This document shows positions 10,424 through 61,942 of a stretch of 64,000 nt of DNA, in pieces. Made by a program: the position numbers and the translations under genes. Every line of letters starts with the position of its first letter. The first letter of the stretch is position 1. Source of the DNA: Nitrospirota bacterium (GTDB taxonomy: Bacteria > Nitrospirota > Thermodesulfovibrionia > Thermodesulfovibrionales > JdFR-86); contig CAVRJY010000004.1 in assembly GCA_963721805.1 (NCBI GenBank), positions 128,001 through 192,000 of the forward strand. The letters run 5' to 3'. The notes under the pieces are model-generated. The model had not been told where the DNA came from. It worked only from the letters and a program-made list of their open reading frames with translations, and made no database searches.

Positions 10424-10455
10424 GATTGGTATTTTGCATCAACAATCTTCTAACA

Positions 10456-11051
10456 GTGAAGCTCCCCGTGGCAAGCCACGGGGCATCCGTGGCGCAGCTA
10501 TAAGTCCAGCTGCGCAGGCAATTGCTTCTCTGCTCTGTGGCCGCGTATGTATTTGCGGATCATTTCCGAGGTCAAGCTGTCCCCGACTGTCCGCGCAAAG
10601 TACCCATCCTCCCACAGCTCACCCTTCCATAGTCTTTGCCTCAGCGATGGGTATTGCTTGAACAGCTCACGGGCGCTGATACTTTTCAGGGTTCTGACCA
10701 CCACCCCTATCGAGTACCGTGGCGGGAACGATAGAAATATATGCACATGGTCCTCCGCCACTTCCATCTCCACTATCTCATATTCATACTCTTCAGCTAT
10801 CTCCCTGAAAAGTTCCGCGCACCGCTCGCGCATGTAACTTTGCGCGAACAGTCTCTTGCGATACTTAGGACACCATACCAGATGGTACCCGGTGTCATAT
10901 ACAGCGTGACTCGTCCTGCGTAACCCCATGCCTCATGATAGCCCGCAATTGCCTCGGCGGGAAAGGGGGACTTCCAGCCCCCCTTACATCCCCCCGGCAG
11001 GGATGCCATTCATCCCCGTGGCAAGCCACGGGGCATACTGGCATGGTTTTC
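10456..11051 (-). mobile_element. IS200/IS605-family IS (tnpA only), copy 1, 596 bp
   Basis: Subterminal hairpins CCCCGTGGCAAGCCACGGGG at both ends. Appears identical to 18421..19016. Both copies lie 3' of TAAC on the minus strand with no target duplication. Confidence 0.93.
10498..10929 (-). CDS. tnpA: IS200 Y1 HUH transposase TnpA
   Basis: YHLVWCPKYR, DHVH (HUH), LWEDGYF and IRKYI (catalytic Tyr). Confidence 0.95.
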   Translation of the reverse strand: MGLRRTSHAVYDTGYHLVWCPKYRKRLFAQSYMRERCAELFREIAEEYEYEIVEMEVAEDHVHIFLSFPPRYSIGVVVRTLKSISARELFKQYPSLRQRLWKGELWEDGYFARTVGDSLTSEMIRKYIRGHRAEKQLPAQLDL

Positions 11052-17793: not shown

Positions 17794-17967
17794 AAAGCGC
17801 GCCAAATCGCTTGATACGTTGTCACCATTTGAAAATCGCCCTCCAGAGTACATCTCGGTACACTTGCGGGCTATTTTCAAATGCTTCCTAGTCTAAAGAC
17901 GATTTGGGCGCGCTTTCGGGGGGCACGGAAAAAGGTCGCCCCCCGCGCCCCCAAGGTCAAAGGCATT
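17794..17967 (-). repeat. Palindromic element copy 4
   Basis: Same arms and head as the other copies. Its long hairpin is the near-exact reverse complement of the one in copy 5. Confidence 0.92.
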
Positions 17968-18014
17968 AATGGATAACTTCCGCACGCGCGTTTTGTTTGA
18001 TATAGAATATAAAC

Positions 18015-18371: not shown

Positions 18372-18420
18372 TGTCCTTTACCTTGGCGTCCTACTGAAGC
18401 GGTCCCCTTTTATAACAATA

Positions 18421-19016
18421 GTGAAGCTCCCCGTGGCAAGCCACGGGGCATCCGTGGCGCAGCTATAAGTCCAGCTGCGCAGGCAATTGCTTCTCTGCTC
18501 TGTGGCCGCGTATGTATTTGCGGATCATTTCCGAGGTCAAGCTGTCCCCGACTGTCCGCGCAAAGTACCCATCCTCCCACAGCTCACCCTTCCATAGTCT
18601 TTGCCTCAGCGATGGGTATTGCTTGAACAGCTCACGGGCGCTGATACTTTTCAGGGTTCTGACCACCACCCCTATCGAGTACCGTGGCGGGAACGATAGA
18701 AATATATGCACATGGTCCTCCGCCACTTCCATCTCCACTATCTCATATTCATACTCTTCAGCTATCTCCCTGAAAAGTTCCGCGCACCGCTCGCGCATGT
18801 AACTTTGCGCGAACAGTCTCTTGCGATACTTAGGACACCATACCAGATGGTACCCGGTGTCATATACAGCGTGACTCGTCCTGCGTAACCCCATGCCTCA
18901 TGATAGCCCGCAATTGCCTCGGCGGGAAAGGGGGACTTCCAGCCCCCCTTACATCCCCCCGGCAGGGATGCCATTCATCCCCGTGGCAAGCCACGGGGCA
19001 TACTGGCATGGTTTTC
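18421..19016 (-). mobile_element. IS200/IS605-family IS, copy 2
   Basis: Same 596-bp sequence and same terminal hairpins as 10456..11051. Confidence 0.93.
18463..18894 (-). CDS. tnpA: IS200 transposase TnpA
   Basis: Protein identical to 10498..10929. Confidence 0.95.
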   Translation of the reverse strand: MGLRRTSHAVYDTGYHLVWCPKYRKRLFAQSYMRERCAELFREIAEEYEYEIVEMEVAEDHVHIFLSFPPRYSIGVVVRTLKSISARELFKQYPSLRQRLWKGELWEDGYFARTVGDSLTSEMIRKYIRGHRAEKQLPAQLDL

Positions 19017-19528
19017 GTTAGTTGAAAACGCACGGGCATCAATTTTTACTATTAACTTCGGTTTATATATAAACCAAAGTATCGCATTGTTTGTTGTATA
19101 GTGGTGCTATGAGCAAGATAATCGCATATCCAATGGGCGGGGCAACGAATGAAGCGGGCATCGACGCGTTTTCGGAGGCAGGGTCGAAAACCGCGCGAAT
19201 TATTCGAACATCCGAACAGCGCCGGACTCGGAAAAACGATGTTTTCCAGGGGCTTATCCGCGTATTTGCCTCAAACATCCGAACACATAAAATAAAACGC
19301 GCGCGCGCGGTATGCATATATATGCCTATGATCGGGCCTCAAACCATGCCTTTGACCTTGTGGGGCGCGGGGGGCGGGGCCGACTGGCCCCCTTCTTTCC
19401 CCCCGAAAGCGCGCCCAAATCGTCTTCAGACTAGGAAGCATTTGAAAATAGCCCGCAAGTGTACTGAGATGTACTCTGGAGGGCGATTTTCAAATGGTGA
19501 CGACGTATCAAGCGATTTGGTGCGCTTT
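19017..19528 (+). repeat. Palindromic element copy 5 (core 19346..19528) with long 5' extension
   Basis: The extension (GGTTTATATATAAACC palindrome, two AACATCCGAACA, CGCGCGCG) is shared with 40476..40825 and 61539..61942. Confidence 0.9.
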
Positions 19529-19542
19529 CAAAGAGGCTGCAT

Positions 19543-20007
19543 ATGAGATTTCTTGCGGACGCCATGTTGGGCCGCCTAGCCCGCCGCATGCGCCTGATGG
19601 GGCTGGATACGGTCTATATGCGCGACACTTCGGACGCCGAGGTGCTCAAAGTGGCCCGCGCCGAGGGCCGCATGCTCCTTACGCGCGACGCCGAACTCGC
19701 GGCCCGCCCGAACCCGGCCGGGACCCTGCACCTGCGTGCCAACGACACCGACGGCCAGCTTGCCGAGTTTATGGGGAGGTTCGGTCTTTTATTAGAGGGG
19801 ACCGTGTCCCCGCCCAGATGCCCGCGCTGCAACGGAGAGCTGCGCTTGACGGCCTCGCGGGCCGAGGTCGAGGGCCGCGTGCCGGAGCACGTACTGCACA
19901 GCTACGGGCGGTTTTTTATTTGCTCTGGATGTGGTAATGTCTACTGGGAGGGCACACAGCACGAGGCGATGAGGGAAATGCTCGAAAAATTCCGGGGCCG
20001 CGGATGA
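19543..20007 (+). CDS. Mut7-C RNase (PIN-like) domain protein
   Basis: RFLADAMLGRLARRMRLMGLDT...LLTRD...RCPRCN...CSGCGNVYWEG. Confidence 0.9.
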   Translation: MRFLADAMLGRLARRMRLMGLDTVYMRDTSDAEVLKVARAEGRMLLTRDAELAARPNPAGTLHLRANDTDGQLAEFMGRFGLLLEGTVSPPRCPRCNGELRLTASRAEVEGRVPEHVLHSYGRFFICSGCGNVYWEGTQHEAMREMLEKFRGRG

Positions 20008-39294: not shown

Positions 39295-39493
39295 AAAGCG
39301 CTCCAAATCGCTTGATGCTGCGTTGGACTTCAAAGACTCGCCCTCTATGAACGCCCAAGTACACCATCGGGGTGCCACGGGCACCTCTTTCCAAGGAGAG
39401 GGGCCAACCGGCCCCCCTTGCCTGAAGACGATTTGGGCGCGCTTTCGGGGGGCACGGAAGAAGGTCGCCCCCAGCGCCCCGGTGGTCAAAAGC
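39295..39493 (-). repeat. Palindromic element copy 8
   Basis: Same arms and head, with extra small hairpins in one arm. Confidence 0.88.
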
Positions 39494-39799
39494 TTTGATA
39501 AGAATTGCCGCCATGCGTTCGCATCGGGGCTGGCACAGGCGATTACATTGCTTGCAGTGCTCAGTTTGGTAATATGCATTGGTGGACCTGTATTATTTGT
39601 CTGCGGTCATTAAGCAATTATTGATTGGTCTAATACTCTTACCGCCCTCCCCATGGATATATTCCTCAGGGCGTTTTTTTGCGCTCTAGCGGATTCTATT
39701 CTGTCTATCTATTGCGCTGACGATTACTTGAGAAATCCTAGCGCGCCATGCTTCCCTTCTTTGCGGGAACAAGTTACAATAGAGCATATGGAGGTGTGT

Positions 39800-40102
39800 A
39801 TGGCCGATTCGCTGACTGAAATACGCACAGAGCTCAAGAGACACAAACGGGAAATCATCAGGAAGTACAAGGTGCGGGAGATCGGCATCTTCGGCTCCTT
39901 TGTCCGCGGTGAGCAAAAAACGAGAAGCGATGTCGACGTGCTGGTTGAATTCGATGAGGAGGATATACCGAGCCTCCTTGAGTTCATTGCCTTTGAGCGG
40001 CACCTGGCTGACATCCTCCACAAGAAAGTGGATTTAGTCCGCAAAGAGGCAATCCGCCCTGAGTTACGGGAGGACATCATGCGGGAAGTTGTCTACATTT
40101 GA
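39800..40102 (+). CDS. MNT (minimal nucleotidyltransferase) antitoxin
   Basis: GSFVRGEQ..RSDVDVLVEF (GSx10DxD) and VDLV. GGAGG SD. Confidence 0.92.
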   Translation: MADSLTEIRTELKRHKREIIRKYKVREIGIFGSFVRGEQKTRSDVDVLVEFDEEDIPSLLEFIAFERHLADILHKKVDLVRKEAIRPELREDIMREVVYI

Positions 40103-40437
40103 AGCGGGATTACAAGCTCTTTGTACAGGACATCCTCGATGCCATAAAGCGCATAGAGGAGTTTGTGGGCGAGATGAGCTTTGAGGAATTCATTGCCGAT
40201 GCTAAAACAGCGAGCGCCACAGTCTTACAGGTTCAGATTATCGGAGAAGCTACAAAGAATATTCCCGCAAAACTCAGGAACCGGTATGCCGGCATCCCCT
40301 GGAAAGATATGGCCGCCATGCGGGATAAGGTAACACATTTCTATTTCGGGGTTGACTATAAAATCGTCTGGCGGGTAATTAAAAAGGACTTGCCTGTTAT
40401 CAGGCCTCAGATAGAAAGAATTCTCGCTGAACTATAG
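40099..40437 (+). CDS. HEPN (DUF86/HepT) RNase toxin
   Basis: IIGEA...IPWKDMAAMRDKVTHFYFGVD (Rx4H). Overlaps the MNT stop codon. Confidence 0.92.
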   Translation: MKRDYKLFVQDILDAIKRIEEFVGEMSFEEFIADAKTASATVLQVQIIGEATKNIPAKLRNRYAGIPWKDMAAMRDKVTHFYFGVDYKIVWRVIKKDLPVIRPQIERILAEL

Positions 40438-40475
40438 TATCTGCTACTTAAACTGTTACTCCTGCGCGCCCCTAC

Positions 40476-41016
40476 ATTAACTAAAGTTAGCCGTAAGTTA
40501 GTAGAAAACGCACAGGCATCAATTTTTCCTATCAACTTTGGTTTATATATAAACCAAAGTTTGGCGTCCTTTGGTGTATAGTGGTGCGATGAGCATGATA
40601 GGATCATATTTGATGGGCGGGGCAACAAAGGAAGCGGGCCTCAACGCGCGTTCGGAGGCAGGGTCTAAAACCGGGCGACATATCCGAACATCCGAACAGC
40701 GCCGGACTCGGAAAAGCAATGTTTTTCAGATGGTTATCCGCGTATTTGCCTCAAACATCCGAACACTTAAAATAAAACGCACGCGCGCGGAATGCGTAAC
40801 TATACCTAAGCGGGAACATCAGAACATGCCTTTGACCACGTGGGGCGCGGGGGGCGTCCTTCTTCCGTGCCCCCCGAAAGCGCGCCCAAATCGTCTTCAG
40901 ACAAGGGGGCAGTGGCCTCTCCGGGAGAAGACCCGGCACCCCGATGGTGTACTTGGGCGTACATAGAGGGCGAGTCTTTGAAGCCCAACGCAGTATCAAG
41001 CGATTTGGTGCGCTTT
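40476..41016 (+). repeat. Palindromic element copy 9 (core 40826..41016) with long 5' extension
   Basis: Homologous to 19017..19528. Perfect 28-bp palindrome at 40534..40561. Confidence 0.9.
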
Positions 41017-41024
41017 GAAAGAAG

Positions 41025-42707
41025 CTACTTAATCAGCTTCATGCCTTGTACTGCGCGCAAATGGAGGGTTTGGAGTTTCAAGGCCCGCTCAAAGCTCACC
41101 TTCGCGCGAAGCGGCATGCCGAGCGCCACGTAAACGTGTCCGATCTCGGCCTGATAGTCGGGGTTTGCGGGGTCCAGCGCTATGGCCCTCTGCAACGCGC
41201 GCTCGGCCTCTTTGTGCCTGCCCAGCCGCGTGAGCGACAGGCCGTACGCATAATGGTATTTCACTACGGCATCGTTGAGCGCCACGGCCTCCTTAAAACA
41301 GTCCGCGGCCTCGGCCTGCCTGCCCTTTTTCCAGTTGGCCTCGCCTTCAACGAACTTCGCGTCGGCCTTGTACACGTCGCCGGAGCCGGCGGCGCTCGTG
41401 CTGCCGTCATATTCGCGCCTGGCCTCCTGGTCCATCAGGGTGGAGTAGGACTTGGTCAGGAAGTTAAAGACGCTTTCGAGTTTTTTCCTCGCATCAGGCG
41501 GAAGATAGAAGTGGCGGTCGGGGTGGAAGGCCTTGCCTTTAAGGTAGTACGCGCGTTCTATCTCGGCGGGCGTGGCATCGCGCTGCACGCCGAGCGCGCC
41601 GTAATAGCCCAGCGAGCCCAGGTTCGCGCACATGAACTCCAGCTCGGGCATGAAAGCGGAGGGGTCGACCTGGTATGGCTGGCCCACCACGATATCCTCT
41701 ATCGTCGGCGTATAGTGGCGATCGAACTGCTCGCCGGCCCCGATATGGTCGATCGTGCGGGTGCTGAGCAGGGCGTATACAGTCTGGTACGTGCGGAGTT
41801 CCCCAAGGGGAGAGGCCGCCATGACCTCCTGCATCGTGCGTCTGCCGTCTATCAGGGTGAGCAGCGCGCGTTCGTCGTCCCCAAGGACGACCGCCTGAAA
41901 GAGGTTCAGCGGCTCGGTCGAGATTATAAGGACCGAATCCGGGGGAGGGCAGAGCGAGGAAAGCCGCCCGGTGTCTGTAATCCGCCTGATGCCGACGCGG
42001 GTGATGTTGCCGATCTGGAGGCTCAGGCCCTCGGCCCTGCCCATCGGGACGTTGCCGTCGCGGTAGTTGAAGTCCGCCTCCTCGAGCCCGAAGAGCCCGG
42101 TGATTATCGACTCGATATTGGCCAGGACGACCGCGTCAGCCTCGGTGGAGTCCATCACCCTCATCTCGACGAGCACCGCCTGCGGCCGCTTCCTCATGTT
42201 GATGACCGCGTCGTTGGCCCTCATGTACCTGGGCCTGTCGATGCGGCCCCACTCCAGCAGCATGTCGAGGAGCCTGTCCTGCTGGGCGTTGGATGTCGCG
42301 TGCACGATGTCGGAGTTCTCGAAGAACACGGACTTCTGGATCGGGCCGGATGTCACGTTCAGCACCCCGGTCAGCCCCCGGCGCTGAAGGCCGAGCATGA
42401 CGTCCGCGAAATTATAGTACTTGAGGCTGCCCTGAAGCACGCCCTGCTTCCTGATGCCGGCAAGCAGCAGCCCGTCGGGCCCCCTGCGTATCCAGACGAC
42501 CTTGCCCGCGCCGCTGAGCTTCTTGTGCTCCGGCAGCTCAACCATGAGCGTATCGCCGAGCTTCAGAGGCGGCACGCCCCTGATCCCGAGCTTAATGCCG
42601 TCGAAGGCGTAGTCTAACAGCGTGGCGTGGAATGGCTTGCCCTGGATCGGGAGCTGGAAGTCGTACCTGAGTTCATGCCTCGTGAATGATCGCTTGTCCT
42701 TGAGCAT
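41025..42707 (-). CDS. PilZ-like + DUF4388-like + DnaJ + TPR multidomain protein
   Basis: N-terminal RSFTR/DYAFDG, GSL...TGVL segment, J-domain YYGALGV...FHPDR, and C-terminal TPRs. Confidence 0.75.
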   Translation of the reverse strand: MLKDKRSFTRHELRYDFQLPIQGKPFHATLLDYAFDGIKLGIRGVPPLKLGDTLMVELPEHKKLSGAGKVVWIRRGPDGLLLAGIRKQGVLQGSLKYYNFADVMLGLQRRGLTGVLNVTSGPIQKSVFFENSDIVHATSNAQQDRLLDMLLEWGRIDRPRYMRANDAVINMRKRPQAVLVEMRVMDSTEADAVVLANIESIITGLFGLEEADFNYRDGNVPMGRAEGLSLQIGNITRVGIRRITDTGRLSSLCPPPDSVLIISTEPLNLFQAVVLGDDERALLTLIDGRRTMQEVMAASPLGELRTYQTVYALLSTRTIDHIGAGEQFDRHYTPTIEDIVVGQPYQVDPSAFMPELEFMCANLGSLGYYGALGVQRDATPAEIERAYYLKGKAFHPDRHFYLPPDARKKLESVFNFLTKSYSTLMDQEARREYDGSTSAAGSGDVYKADAKFVEGEANWKKGRQAEAADCFKEAVALNDAVVKYHYAYGLSLTRLGRHKEAERALQRAIALDPANPDYQAEIGHVYVALGMPLRAKVSFERALKLQTLHLRAVQGMKLIK

Positions 42708-42789
42708 GCCTATGTCATTATCGCATAAGGGCGCGCGGCTTTGCCAAGCCAAGTATGAAATCACAGCTTGAGCGGTGTTAGTATAAGCA

Positions 42790-43098
42790 ATGCAACGCTT
42801 CATACCCGAGGCCTCGGACGAGGAAATAAGGCGCGAGAAGGCCCGCGCCCGCGAGCTCCGGTCCACCCCCTGGTGGAAGCGCAAGTGCGCCTCGGGCCGG
42901 TGTCACTACTGCGGCGGAACGTTCAAGCCCTCGGAGCTGACGATGGACCACCTCGTGCCGGTCGTGCGCGGCGGCAAGTCCGTCAAGGCCAACCTGGTGC
43001 CATCGTGCAAGGACTGCAACAACAAAAAGAAATACCTGCTGCCGTCGGAGTGGGAAGAGTACCTCGAAAGGCTCAAGGACGAGGAGATACCGGACTAG
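42790..43098 (+). CDS. Small HNH endonuclease-family protein
   Basis: CHYC...MDHLVP..RGG....NLVPSCKDCN. Confidence 0.9.
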   Translation: MQRFIPEASDEEIRREKARARELRSTPWWKRKCASGRCHYCGGTFKPSELTMDHLVPVVRGGKSVKANLVPSCKDCNNKKKYLLPSEWEEYLERLKDEEIPD

Positions 43099-44687: not shown

Positions 44688-45100
44688 AAAGCGCTCCAAA
44701 TCGCTTGATACTGCGTTGGGCTGCGAAGACTCGCCCTCTATGTACGTCACATCAGTCCGCTTGGTCAAGCGTCCGGGGCTTTCTACAAAGCGCTCCAAAT
44801 CGCTTGATACGTCGTTGGGTTGCGAAGACTCGCCCTCTATGTACGCCCAAGTACACCATCGGGCGGTCTTCTCGCCCCGCCTTGTCTGAAGCCGATTTGG
44901 GCGCGCTTTCGGGGGGCACGGACGAAGGACGCCCCCCGCGCCCCACAAGGTCAAAGGTATTGATATATATACATACTTATCGCGTGCGCGTGCGCGCGCG
45001 CATATTTTAGAGCGTTCAAGTGAACGTGCCGGTCGCGCCTCTAACCCCTTGGAAAACATCGTTTATTCGGCCTCCCCCATGTTCATGCGTTCAGAAACGT
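44688..45100 (-). repeat. Palindromic element copy 10 (full 44787..44961 + half copy 44688..44786) with diverged extension
   Basis: Same 1.5-copy arrangement as 61266..61538. The extension shares AAACGATGTTTTCCA.GGG and CGCG runs with copy 5. Confidence 0.88.
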
Positions 45101-45193
45101 TTTCCGCGCATGATAAGCCCTCCTGTAGTCGTATTTTATACGGAGAACTCTCTCTGCGCATGGCCTAGTTTTCAGGGGTAAGATCGACAGGAA

Positions 45194-61190: not shown

Positions 61191-61265
61191 GGTAAGATAA
61201 TCGCCCATTCGCCCCAAAAAGTCAAGGGGGCGAGGGATACTTTTACCTATATCGGCGTCTCTTCC

Positions 61266-61942
61266 AAAGCGCTCCAAATCGCTTGATACTGCGTTGGGCT
61301 TCAAAGACTCGCCCTCTATGTACGTCACATCAGTCCGCTTGGTCAAGCGTCCGGGGCCTTTTTCAAAGCGCTCCAAATCGTTTGATACTGCGTTGGGCTT
61401 CAAAGACTCGCCCTCTATGTACGCCCAAGTACACCATCGGGCGGTCTTCTCGCCCTGCCTTGTCTGAAGACGATTTGGGCGCGCTTTCGGGGGGCACGGA
61501 CAAAGGCCGCCCCCCGCGCCCCACAAGGTCAACGGCATGATTTGAGGCATGTTCTGATGCTCGCGCTTAGGTATAGTTACGCATTCCGCGCGCGTGCGCG
61601 CGCGTTTTTGCGTCTTTTGTTCGGATGTTGGGCAAGAATATGGCGATAATATCTTGAAAACACTCATTTGTTTGTCAGCCCTCTGTTCGGATGTTCGGAT
61701 AAAAGACGCGTTTTCTGGCCCATCATCCGAACACGCGGCGCTTGTCGAACACGCAGAACACTTCGGCTCCGCGCTGAGTGCTTGATGGCCTCTTGTCTTC
61801 CCTTTCAAATACATACCTAACTTACTCATCGCACCACTATACACCAAAGAAGGCCAAACTTTGGTTTATATATAAACCGAAGATAATAGGAAAAATTTAG
61901 GTTCGTGCGTTTTCTATTAACTTACGATTAACTATGGTTAAT
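61266..61942 (-). repeat. Palindromic element copy 12 (half copy + full copy 61365..61538) with long extension
   Basis: 1.5-copy core like 44688..44961. The extension is homologous to 40476..40825. Confidence 0.9.

Follow-up and report, generated by a model that had tools for sequence, protein, structure and literature searches.

The window analysed here is a stretch of 64,000 nt from a Nitrospirota bacterium (assembly GCA_963721805.1, contig CAVRJY010000004.1, positions 128,001 to 192,000), and the element under study is a dispersed intergenic repeat, of which one full-length copy (the focal copy) begins at position 40476 of the window. The element is a mosaic of a ~350-nt 5' module joined to a 190-nt hairpin repeat (SRE), with unit sizes of 190-560 nt. 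Its 5' module carries a palindrome, a -10-like hexamer and an invariant ATG, and the open reading frame (ORF) that starts at this ATG is depleted of stop codons, yet appears to be under no constraint of amino acids or codons. In our favoured reading, to which we assign a probability of about 45%, the repeat would be a promoter cassette dispersed over the genome, with an ORF maintained open to let ribosomes accompany the polymerase across the structured repeat and on into the following gene.

The repeat family was collected from the 2.78-Mb assembly that contains the window, with the focal copy as query (blastn; 191 high-scoring segment pairs, 68-88% identity to the query). It comprises 20 full-length copies, which have sharp shared ends and unrelated flanks in the alignment, and 13 further partial or diverged modules, the latter found via the palindrome. 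In addition, 52 solo copies consist of the last ~190 nt only (SRE), and there are shorter 3' pieces as well as pieces of the first ~80 nt only; the SRE stands alone about 100 times in the genome. Between a full copy and its nearest relative the divergence is 12-26% (median 17.7%).

The 5' module and its open frame

The palindrome of the 5' module has the core GGTTT-N6-AAACC, and its centre precedes the A of the ATG by 41.5 nt. The 16-mer core occurs 31 times in the genome at ≤2 mismatches, 25 times exactly and always inside a copy of the module; no occurrence outside the element was found in the genome at this threshold. The sequence around it is only 74-88% identical, and such a contrast in conservation speaks for a protein-binding site of a putative regulator. 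A third half-site, CTTTGGTGTATA, lies at 40569-40580, where it overlaps the -10 box.

The ATG is kept in all 20 full copies. In 14 of these it follows the end of a TATAGT or TATATT at a distance of 5-6 nt (5 nt in one copy), and the remaining six have a 10-nt insertion with TGnTTCAAT that ends 5 nt before the ATG; the spacing of hexamer and ATG is thus the same in both subfamilies despite the insertion, i.e. the distance is kept though the sequence is not. No Shine-Dalgarno-like (GGAGG-like) motif was found by eye before the ATG in the alignment, with only 5-6 nt between hexamer and ATG, and such spacing is the geometry of a predicted leaderless start. The earlier note on this DNA had proposed a regulated, probably leaderless transcript that encodes a small protein and/or a structured RNA. 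The -10-like box at leaderless distance, the invariant ATG and the kept open frame are consistent with such a transcript; a structured RNA in the 5' module is not borne out, as the consensus RNA fold of the module is weak, with mismatches that are not compensated. On the antisense strand of most copies there is a terminator-like sequence (A-run and 7-bp all-GC hairpin on the sense strand, hence hairpin plus TTTTT on the antisense strand); a terminator was called in the copy at 61266-61942 (window + strand, 61587-61604), and none was called in the focal copy.

The frame of the ATG (frame 0) is free of stops up to the 3' end of the element in 13 of the 20 full copies, compared with 0, 0, 0, 0 and 1 of 20 for the other five frames. 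In 12 of 20 copies the length from ATG to end is divisible by three, and nine different lengths are represented (binomial p=0.013). Alignment columns with stop triplets number 12 in frame 0 versus 36 and 35 in frames 1 and 2, and nearly all of the frame-0 stops are conserved off-frame triplets that were put in frame by a frameshift. For rare stops, with the expectation computed from column frequencies, 6 were observed in frame 0 against 31.5 expected, while frame 1 (44 observed, 37.4 expected) and frame 2 (41 observed, 38.9 expected) contain about as many as expected. This depletion extends over both parts of the full copies (observed/expected 6/23.1 in the 5' module and 0/8.4 in the SRE part), whereas the same SRE frame is not depleted in the 52 solo copies, which have neither promoter nor ATG (17/22.0). 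When the full copies are split by promoter type, a division that is independent of the state of the ORF, the TATAGT copies (n=14) have 0 rare stops with 21.6 expected and the TTCAAT copies (n=6) have 6 with 9.9 expected. The lack of frame-0 stops, taken with these controls, supports a link to translation, and selection that keeps the frame open beyond chance is supported by the same pattern.

The split was replicated in the 13 further modules. All three TATAGT-type modules have intact ORFs (154-175 aa), while of the TTCAAT-type modules three of nine are intact and six of nine are broken, and one further module is without ATG; the three intact ones belong to a third subfamily, whose interior is unrelated and which is nevertheless open. 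Free frameshifting of other copies had been named in the earlier note as the observation that would speak against a conserved frame. It is not found for the TATAGT subfamily, in which 16 of 17 pooled ORFs reach at least 114 codons, and it holds only for the decaying TTCAAT subfamily, with 6 of 15 (Fisher p=0.0017).

The conserved small protein that had been suggested as product was not confirmed. The pooled pairwise ratio of non-synonymous to synonymous substitution rates (dN/dS), a check that the earlier note had itself proposed, is 0.92 in the phase of the ORF versus 0.89 and 0.89 in phases 1 and 2, i.e. at off-frame level. The GC content by codon position is.53/.54/.57 in the ORF, without the bias of the host genes (.61/.44/.83), and the per-codon usage score is -0.29, compared with +0.27±0.10 for 643 small called genes. 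AlphaFold2 (17-sequence alignment) gave no confident fold (pLDDT 50.3, pTM 0.15), and no Pfam family was found for the ORF. The conserved peptide motifs are nucleotide motifs that are read in different frames among subfamilies: for the third ATCCGAAC octamer the reading is NIRT in one subfamily but TSEQ in another, with a +1/-7 indel pair restoring the frame. The C-termini differ from locus to locus, since the ORF mostly leaves the element and ends in the flank. By these measures the ORF is open with its amino acids and codons unconstrained, and is not an ordinary protein gene. From a stop-free ORF without amino-acid or codon constraint we infer that translation itself may be the function. For annotation this calls for caution: such ORFs are open and conserved in frame, yet would not be protein genes in the usual sense.

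Neighbouring genes and readings of the repeat

In 16 of the 20 full copies (15 of 20 by an alternative counting rule) the element is followed on its 3' side by a co-directional gene, with gaps of 14-228 nt from the GCGCTTT near the element's end and with one called start inside the element; for solo SREs this is the case in only 13 of 52 (Fisher p=3e-5). Among the downstream genes are those for ArsR, ABC-F ATPase, Iso_dh, MurA-like, radical-SAM, two SLT transglycosylases, GroES, Mut7-C and HAD hydrolase proteins. The upstream gene is divergent in six copies, so that most of the downstream gene's promoter region is occupied by the element; for example, the murA-like gene begins 42 nt and the radical-SAM gene 76 nt past the end of the element. 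Accessory genes are found on the 5' side (MNT/HepT in the window; HicA, Phd/YefM, DUF4160 and DUF559 at other loci). The frame reads through the element in 11 co-directional copies. Two of these are in-frame fusions with the next gene (MltD-like and alanine-dehydrogenase-like), and for the others the distance from the ORF stop to the next start is -4 and -8 nt (overlaps), +8, +11, +22 and +39 nt, and +123, +151 and +223 nt. The genome encodes Rho.

In the favoured reading, the 5' module would be a portable transcription unit with a palindromic site for the putative regulator at -41.5 and a half-site over the -10 box. The -10 box, lacking a -35 element, followed by a leaderless AUG would start both transcript and translation, and the ORF of 115-180 codons would traverse module and SRE and mostly end in the flank near the next gene. 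Selection would keep this ORF free of stops, with the act of translation as the function: with ribosomes behind the RNA polymerase, ~0.45 kb of structured RNA that would otherwise go untranslated could neither fold nor set off Rho-dependent termination, and the promoter borne by the repeat could then feed the downstream host gene. Transcription from the repeat promoter, leaderless initiation and the anti-polarity role are proposed here from sequence features. If the reading is true, the ~20 copies would be natural replicates for how bacteria bring RNA polymerase through long structured leaders, the operator, being defined in sequence, would be usable for finding the regulator, and the repeat would be a mobile one able to rewire essential genes.

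Several observations weigh against this reading. No -35 element was found and a consensus promoter scan does not call the site. A convergent gene is faced by 4 of the 20 full copies, the focal copy included, and these are therefore unable to drive a downstream gene; read-through is not clearly different between co-directional (11 of 16) and convergent copies (2 of 4), and the gene calls used for context came from a crude gene caller. Among single indels, whose length distribution the earlier note had suggested as a check, multiples of three are not over-represented (12 of 39 gap runs). Relatedness among the copies, and possible exchange of segments between them through gene conversion, mean that the Poisson-type p-values overstate independence and are upper bounds on significance. 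Finally, avoidance of stops would also fit a loosely constrained, disordered protein.

A wider version of the favoured reading, in which ~30 repeat promoters with one exactly conserved palindromic operator form a mobile regulon, is in our view rather unlikely. Such a regulon would wire unrelated host genes (murA-like, groES, ABC-F ATPase, ArsR and cell-wall hydrolase genes) to one putative regulator. Each promoter would be followed by a leaderless 'escort ORF' selected only for openness, and translation would serve as a portable device against polarity or folding where the polymerase crosses a recombination-prone hairpin repeat.

A role at the level of DNA was considered as an alternative and is judged unlikely. 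The module would then be a docking, recombination or replication-type end of the accessory-gene islets bracketed by SRE pairs, with the palindrome as recombinase site and the ATCCGAAC octamers as protein-binding repeats, and the open frame would be a by-product of copying or conversion from few open masters. Xer/dif sites consist of two 11-bp arms around a 6-bp centre and are bound by tyrosine recombinases; the 28-bp palindrome can be written as 11-6-11. It is unique to the module and far more conserved than its surroundings, and the sequence to its left is common to all subfamilies, in contrast to that on its right. For the octamers, it is the nucleotides and not the codons that are conserved. 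The module is located on the islet (cargo) side of the SRE, beside MNT/HepT, HicA, Phd/YefM and DUF4160 genes, and in 8 of the 20 full copies an inverted SRE is the nearest upstream repeat within 12 kb. However, a DNA-level role leaves unexplained that stops are missing only in the frame of the ATG, on one strand and in copies with the canonical -10 box, at 12-26% divergence, and that the hexamer-ATG distance is kept across a 10-nt insertion. Furthermore, no recombinase gene was consistently adjacent (no search was aimed at recombinases beside the copies), Y1 genes were found only in a separate IS200-like element with ends of its own, and a flanking direct repeat of at least 8 nt is present in only 1 of 20 copies.

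Less likely again is a real small protein, basic and intrinsically disordered (e.g. a nucleic-acid-binding or element-maintenance factor), which would be loosely constrained and encoded by ~20 paralogues under a common regulated promoter. The confinement of stop depletion to promoter-linked copies and the invariant ATG would fit such a protein, as would an intact 172-aa relative on an independent ENA metagenome contig and the recurrence of IRTSEQ, KRARTRAEC and PPKARPNRLQTR in the protein alignment. Against it stand the dN/dS, which is the same in frame and off frame, the missing codon bias in a genome with 83% GC at third codon positions, and the absence of both a confident fold (pLDDT 50, pTM 0.15) and a Pfam match; moreover, the apparent peptide motifs are nucleotide motifs (NIRT versus TSEQ by subfamily), the third subfamily is open despite its unrelated interior, and the stop codon mostly lies outside the element, which makes the C-termini locus-specific.

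An ordinary decaying MITE (miniature inverted-repeat transposable element) or REP-like repeat without function, with promoter box and open frame as chance ancestral features, is very improbable: the copies are old (68-88% identical to the query), intergenic and non-coding by Pfam, and fortuitous ORFs and promoter-like boxes are common in repeat families according to the available parts of PMC3184786 and PMC10969869, but new stops are lacking after 12-26% divergence per nearest pair, although they have accumulated as often as expected in the other frames and in the solo SREs, 25 of 31 palindromes are exact, and the copies are biased in orientation to co-directional genes.

The repeat family and its copies in the window

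Every copy has a common 3' end, GCGCTTT followed by an 8-nt tail sAArAArG (147 ends aligned). The family is short, multi-copy and without a transposase gene, as is typical of MITEs, and its ORFs have no Pfam family; terminal inverted repeats were not found, with five pairs in a scan of 40440-41040 of which none links the two termini. A word of at least 8 nt is shared from flank to flank in 1 of 20 full copies, the focal copy (null frequency 1.5% per pair).

At the gathering score, Rfam gave 0 matches for the whole window, and a permissive search only 4 matches with E-values from 0.75 to 8.2. The whole element had no match by DNA in 40 relatives (10 of the same family, 30 of the same order), and an exact 24-mer of the SRE had 0 matches in genome contigs and 0 in metagenome contigs, from which records of the genome itself were possibly omitted. 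A tandem 17-mer of the 5' module occurs 33 times in the own genome; in 400 other genomes of the phylum, with ≤1 mismatch allowed, 4 single one-mismatch matches were obtained versus 2 control matches. Relatives of the ORF comprise the 172-aa ORF mentioned above and otherwise only four paralogues. In one freshwater-sediment metagenome (one study; possibly the source sample), error-free pieces of the MNT and DnaJ genes that flank the focal copy are present at low depth, and diverged copies of the element are numerous; no contig bridging the focal locus without the element was found in it. As judged from these searches, the repeat is lineage-specific, non-autonomous and found in this genome only. 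Spread of a retro-type from the 3' end was rejected, as no RVT_1 gene is found in the genome and the promoter is inside the copied unit.

The features of the focal copy and the other copies discussed here are listed in Table 1. The 28-bp palindrome, the TATAGT-6 nt-ATG, the ATCCGAAC repeats and the CG run that had been described in the earlier note are all present, and the 5' extension that it saw in three copies of the window was confirmed by blastn and by comparison with the family. Likewise, in all three copies the frame of the ATG reaches MPLT..WGAGG..PPKARPNRLQTR, the ORF of the copy at 19017 overlaps the start of the Mut7-C gene by 4 nt (ATGA), and that of the copy at 61942 is in frame with the SLT+LysM (MltD-like) gene. 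The copy limits had to be revised: the copy at 19017 owes its start at this position solely to an IS200-like element (18420-19016) in its 5' end, and the true end of the focal copy is at 41024, 8 nt beyond the 41016 noted before.

Table 1. Features of the focal copy and further copies of the repeat in the window
Feature	Position	Strand	Remarks
5' terminal region	40476..40533	+	ATTAAC..GTTAG motifs, AGAAAACGCAC, AATTTTTCC; abrupt start of homology in 20 copies
Palindrome, 28 bp, perfect	40534..40561	.	core GGTTTATATATAAACC at 40540-40555
TATAGT, -10-like hexamer	40577..40582	+	without -35 match; 6 nt, then ATG at 40589
ORF, 125 codons in the focal copy	40589..40966	+	ends 58 nt short of the element end, after a frameshift in the hairpin domain
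GTTCGGA...ATCCGAAC-ATCCGAAC, inverted and tandem octamer motif	40650..40697	+	octamers at 40682-40689 and 40690-40697
Third ATCCGAAC octamer	40757..40764	+	nucleotides conserved, reading frame of the motif not
CG-run	40778..40790	-	shortened by a 7-nt deletion in the focal copy
3' hairpin domain (SRE)	40826..41024	+	includes the 8-nt A-rich tail GAAAGAAG
Second full-type copy	19017..19536	+	5' end truncated by IS200-like insertion; ORF 19109-19546
Third full copy	61258..61942	-	extra tandem tail unit; ORF continues in frame into SLT/LysM (MltD-like) gene
Inverted solo SRE	39295..39504	-	brackets, with the focal copy, the MNT/HepT pair 39653-40437

Directly upstream of 40476 there are ~10 semi-conserved bases (gcCCctnttc), and the SRE end of the focal copy adjoins the stop codon (41025-41027) of a convergent DnaJ/TPR gene. 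The focal copy is probably a partly decayed member of the family, because its frame is shifted inside the SRE and its antisense terminator is degraded. A 9-bp direct repeat, GCTACTTAA, at 40443-40451 and 41024-41032 brackets the focal copy plus 24 nt upstream, and its right-hand unit includes the stop codon of the DnaJ/TPR gene. Since CTACTTA also follows the tail of at least five other copies, this repeat may reflect a preferred target or belong to the element instead of being a duplication. The convergent neighbour itself (41028-42884, - strand) encodes a protein of 619 aa that combines PilZ, DUF4388, DnaJ and TPR domains. The order in the window is SRE (-), MNT/HepT, 5' module and SRE (+), and the MNT (NTP_transf_2)/HepT toxin-antitoxin pair is the entire cargo between the inverted SRE and the focal element. 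A further copy in the window, at 44962-45120 (-), is of the TTCAAT type (the decaying subfamily), 5'-truncated and without palindrome or ATG; it corresponds to the diverged extension of the earlier note.

The consensus fold of the SRE comprises 55 pairs that are 95% canonical, with 14 pairs changed on both sides; G-U cells (123) outnumber A-C cells (32), with two positions dominating, so that the strand is undecided. Solo SREs are found beside a convergent gene in 39 of 52 cases, tail first against its stop (in the window, for example, at 39295-39504, 44688-44963 and 17794-17975). The convergent stop codon is -2 to +31 nt from the SRE in 30 of these 39, and the reverse complement of a stop (CTA/TTA/TCA) often stands directly behind the A-rich tail. 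Behind some copies the last ~77 nt of the SRE are present as extra tandem units ~99 nt apart (window 61266-61441 and 44688-44863), and at one locus (genome C1:456398-456661) the SRE end forms a four-unit array with ~80-nt spacing.

An IS200-like element of ~600 nt that encodes a Y1 transposase of 144 aa is present at 10455-11051 and 18420-19016 (-) of the window. Its six copies in the genome are 100% identical, with identical end hairpins (CCCCGTGGC-TT-GCCACGGGG), and contain the only Y1 transposase genes (Y1_Tnp) of the genome. Insertion takes place behind a TAAC/TTAAC word and produces no duplication, and two of the six copies are located in the TTAAC-rich 5' terminus of a full-length repeat. 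An origin of the repeat from this element was rejected, as the end hairpins are unrelated and the element merely inserts into the module.

Comparison with known repeat systems

REP/BIME sequences are palindromic units of 20-40 nt, which are associated with a single RAYT gene flanked by them. The SRE half of the present element resembles REP/BIME and REPIN in being abundant, hairpin-forming, located at gene ends and in inverted pairs, and a target of insertion sequences. In contrast to the REP/BIME-RAYT system, the SRE has 190 nt, the Y1 genes belong to IS200-like copies with unrelated end hairpins, and no repeat-flanked RAYT gene was found in the genome.

Translation of repeats has been described for two systems. 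Rickettsia palindromic elements (RPE; Ogata et al. 2000, as described in the available part of PMC10969869) are hairpin repeats that are open in one frame and translated within host proteins, and the two in-frame fusions of the present repeat, with MltD-like and alanine-dehydrogenase-like genes, are comparable. Unlike RPE, which insert inside genes and have a conserved peptide, the present element has its own start and promoter-like signal and appears to lack constraint on the peptide. In mycobacteria, the ORFs of MIRU (Supply et al. 1997, as described in the available part of PMC3184786) are oriented with, and overlap, their neighbours in polycistrons, and in both systems the alignment of the ORF with flanking genes suggests that translation across the repeat matters. 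MIRU are tandem units of 40-100 bp inside operons, without a promoter of their own, whereas here just 4 of the 11 copies with read-through show an overlap (-4 and -8 nt) or a fusion (two).

Correia/NEMIS and other promoter-bearing MITEs are known to supply promoters and terminator-like hairpins (available part of PMC10969869). The present repeat is likewise an abundant, structured intergenic repeat, a possible donor of promoters or terminators to its neighbours and a target of insertion sequences. Unlike Correia elements, with their terminal inverted repeats and TA duplications, the present element showed no terminal inverted repeat, and only 1 of 20 copies is flanked by a direct repeat of 8 nt or more. 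The available part of PMC10969869 mentions no selected open frame in Correia elements.

The Neisseria REP2 sequences, which are contact-regulated promoter repeats, and Borrelia IR-A carry a promoter, a ribosome-binding site as well as an ATG upstream of genes (available part of PMC3184786). Like these, the present repeat is dispersed in intergenic regions without terminal inverted repeats, has a promoter-like signal, an ATG and an open frame directly upstream of host genes, and contains internal stem-loops. The REP2 units are of ~120-150 bp and have a ribosome-binding site; here, in contrast, no Shine-Dalgarno motif is found, the ATG is at leaderless distance, the ORF has 115-180 codons and appears to be kept open by selection without amino-acid constraint, and the unit is fused to a separate hairpin repeat of 190 nt. 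In sequence the element is unrelated to REP2, and likewise to IR-A, MIRU, Correia and other promoter-bearing MITEs, and RPE. The combination of leaderless geometry with an 'open but unconstrained' ORF was not found in the available parts of PMC3184786 and PMC10969869, and the word 'leaderless' is absent from that of the latter, a review of MITEs; in the literature, no described case was found of a long ORF of a repeat that is kept open by selection with an unconstrained product. Intergenic repeats that donate promoters are already known, and an ORF that is selected, yet unconstrained in its product, would be the new aspect.

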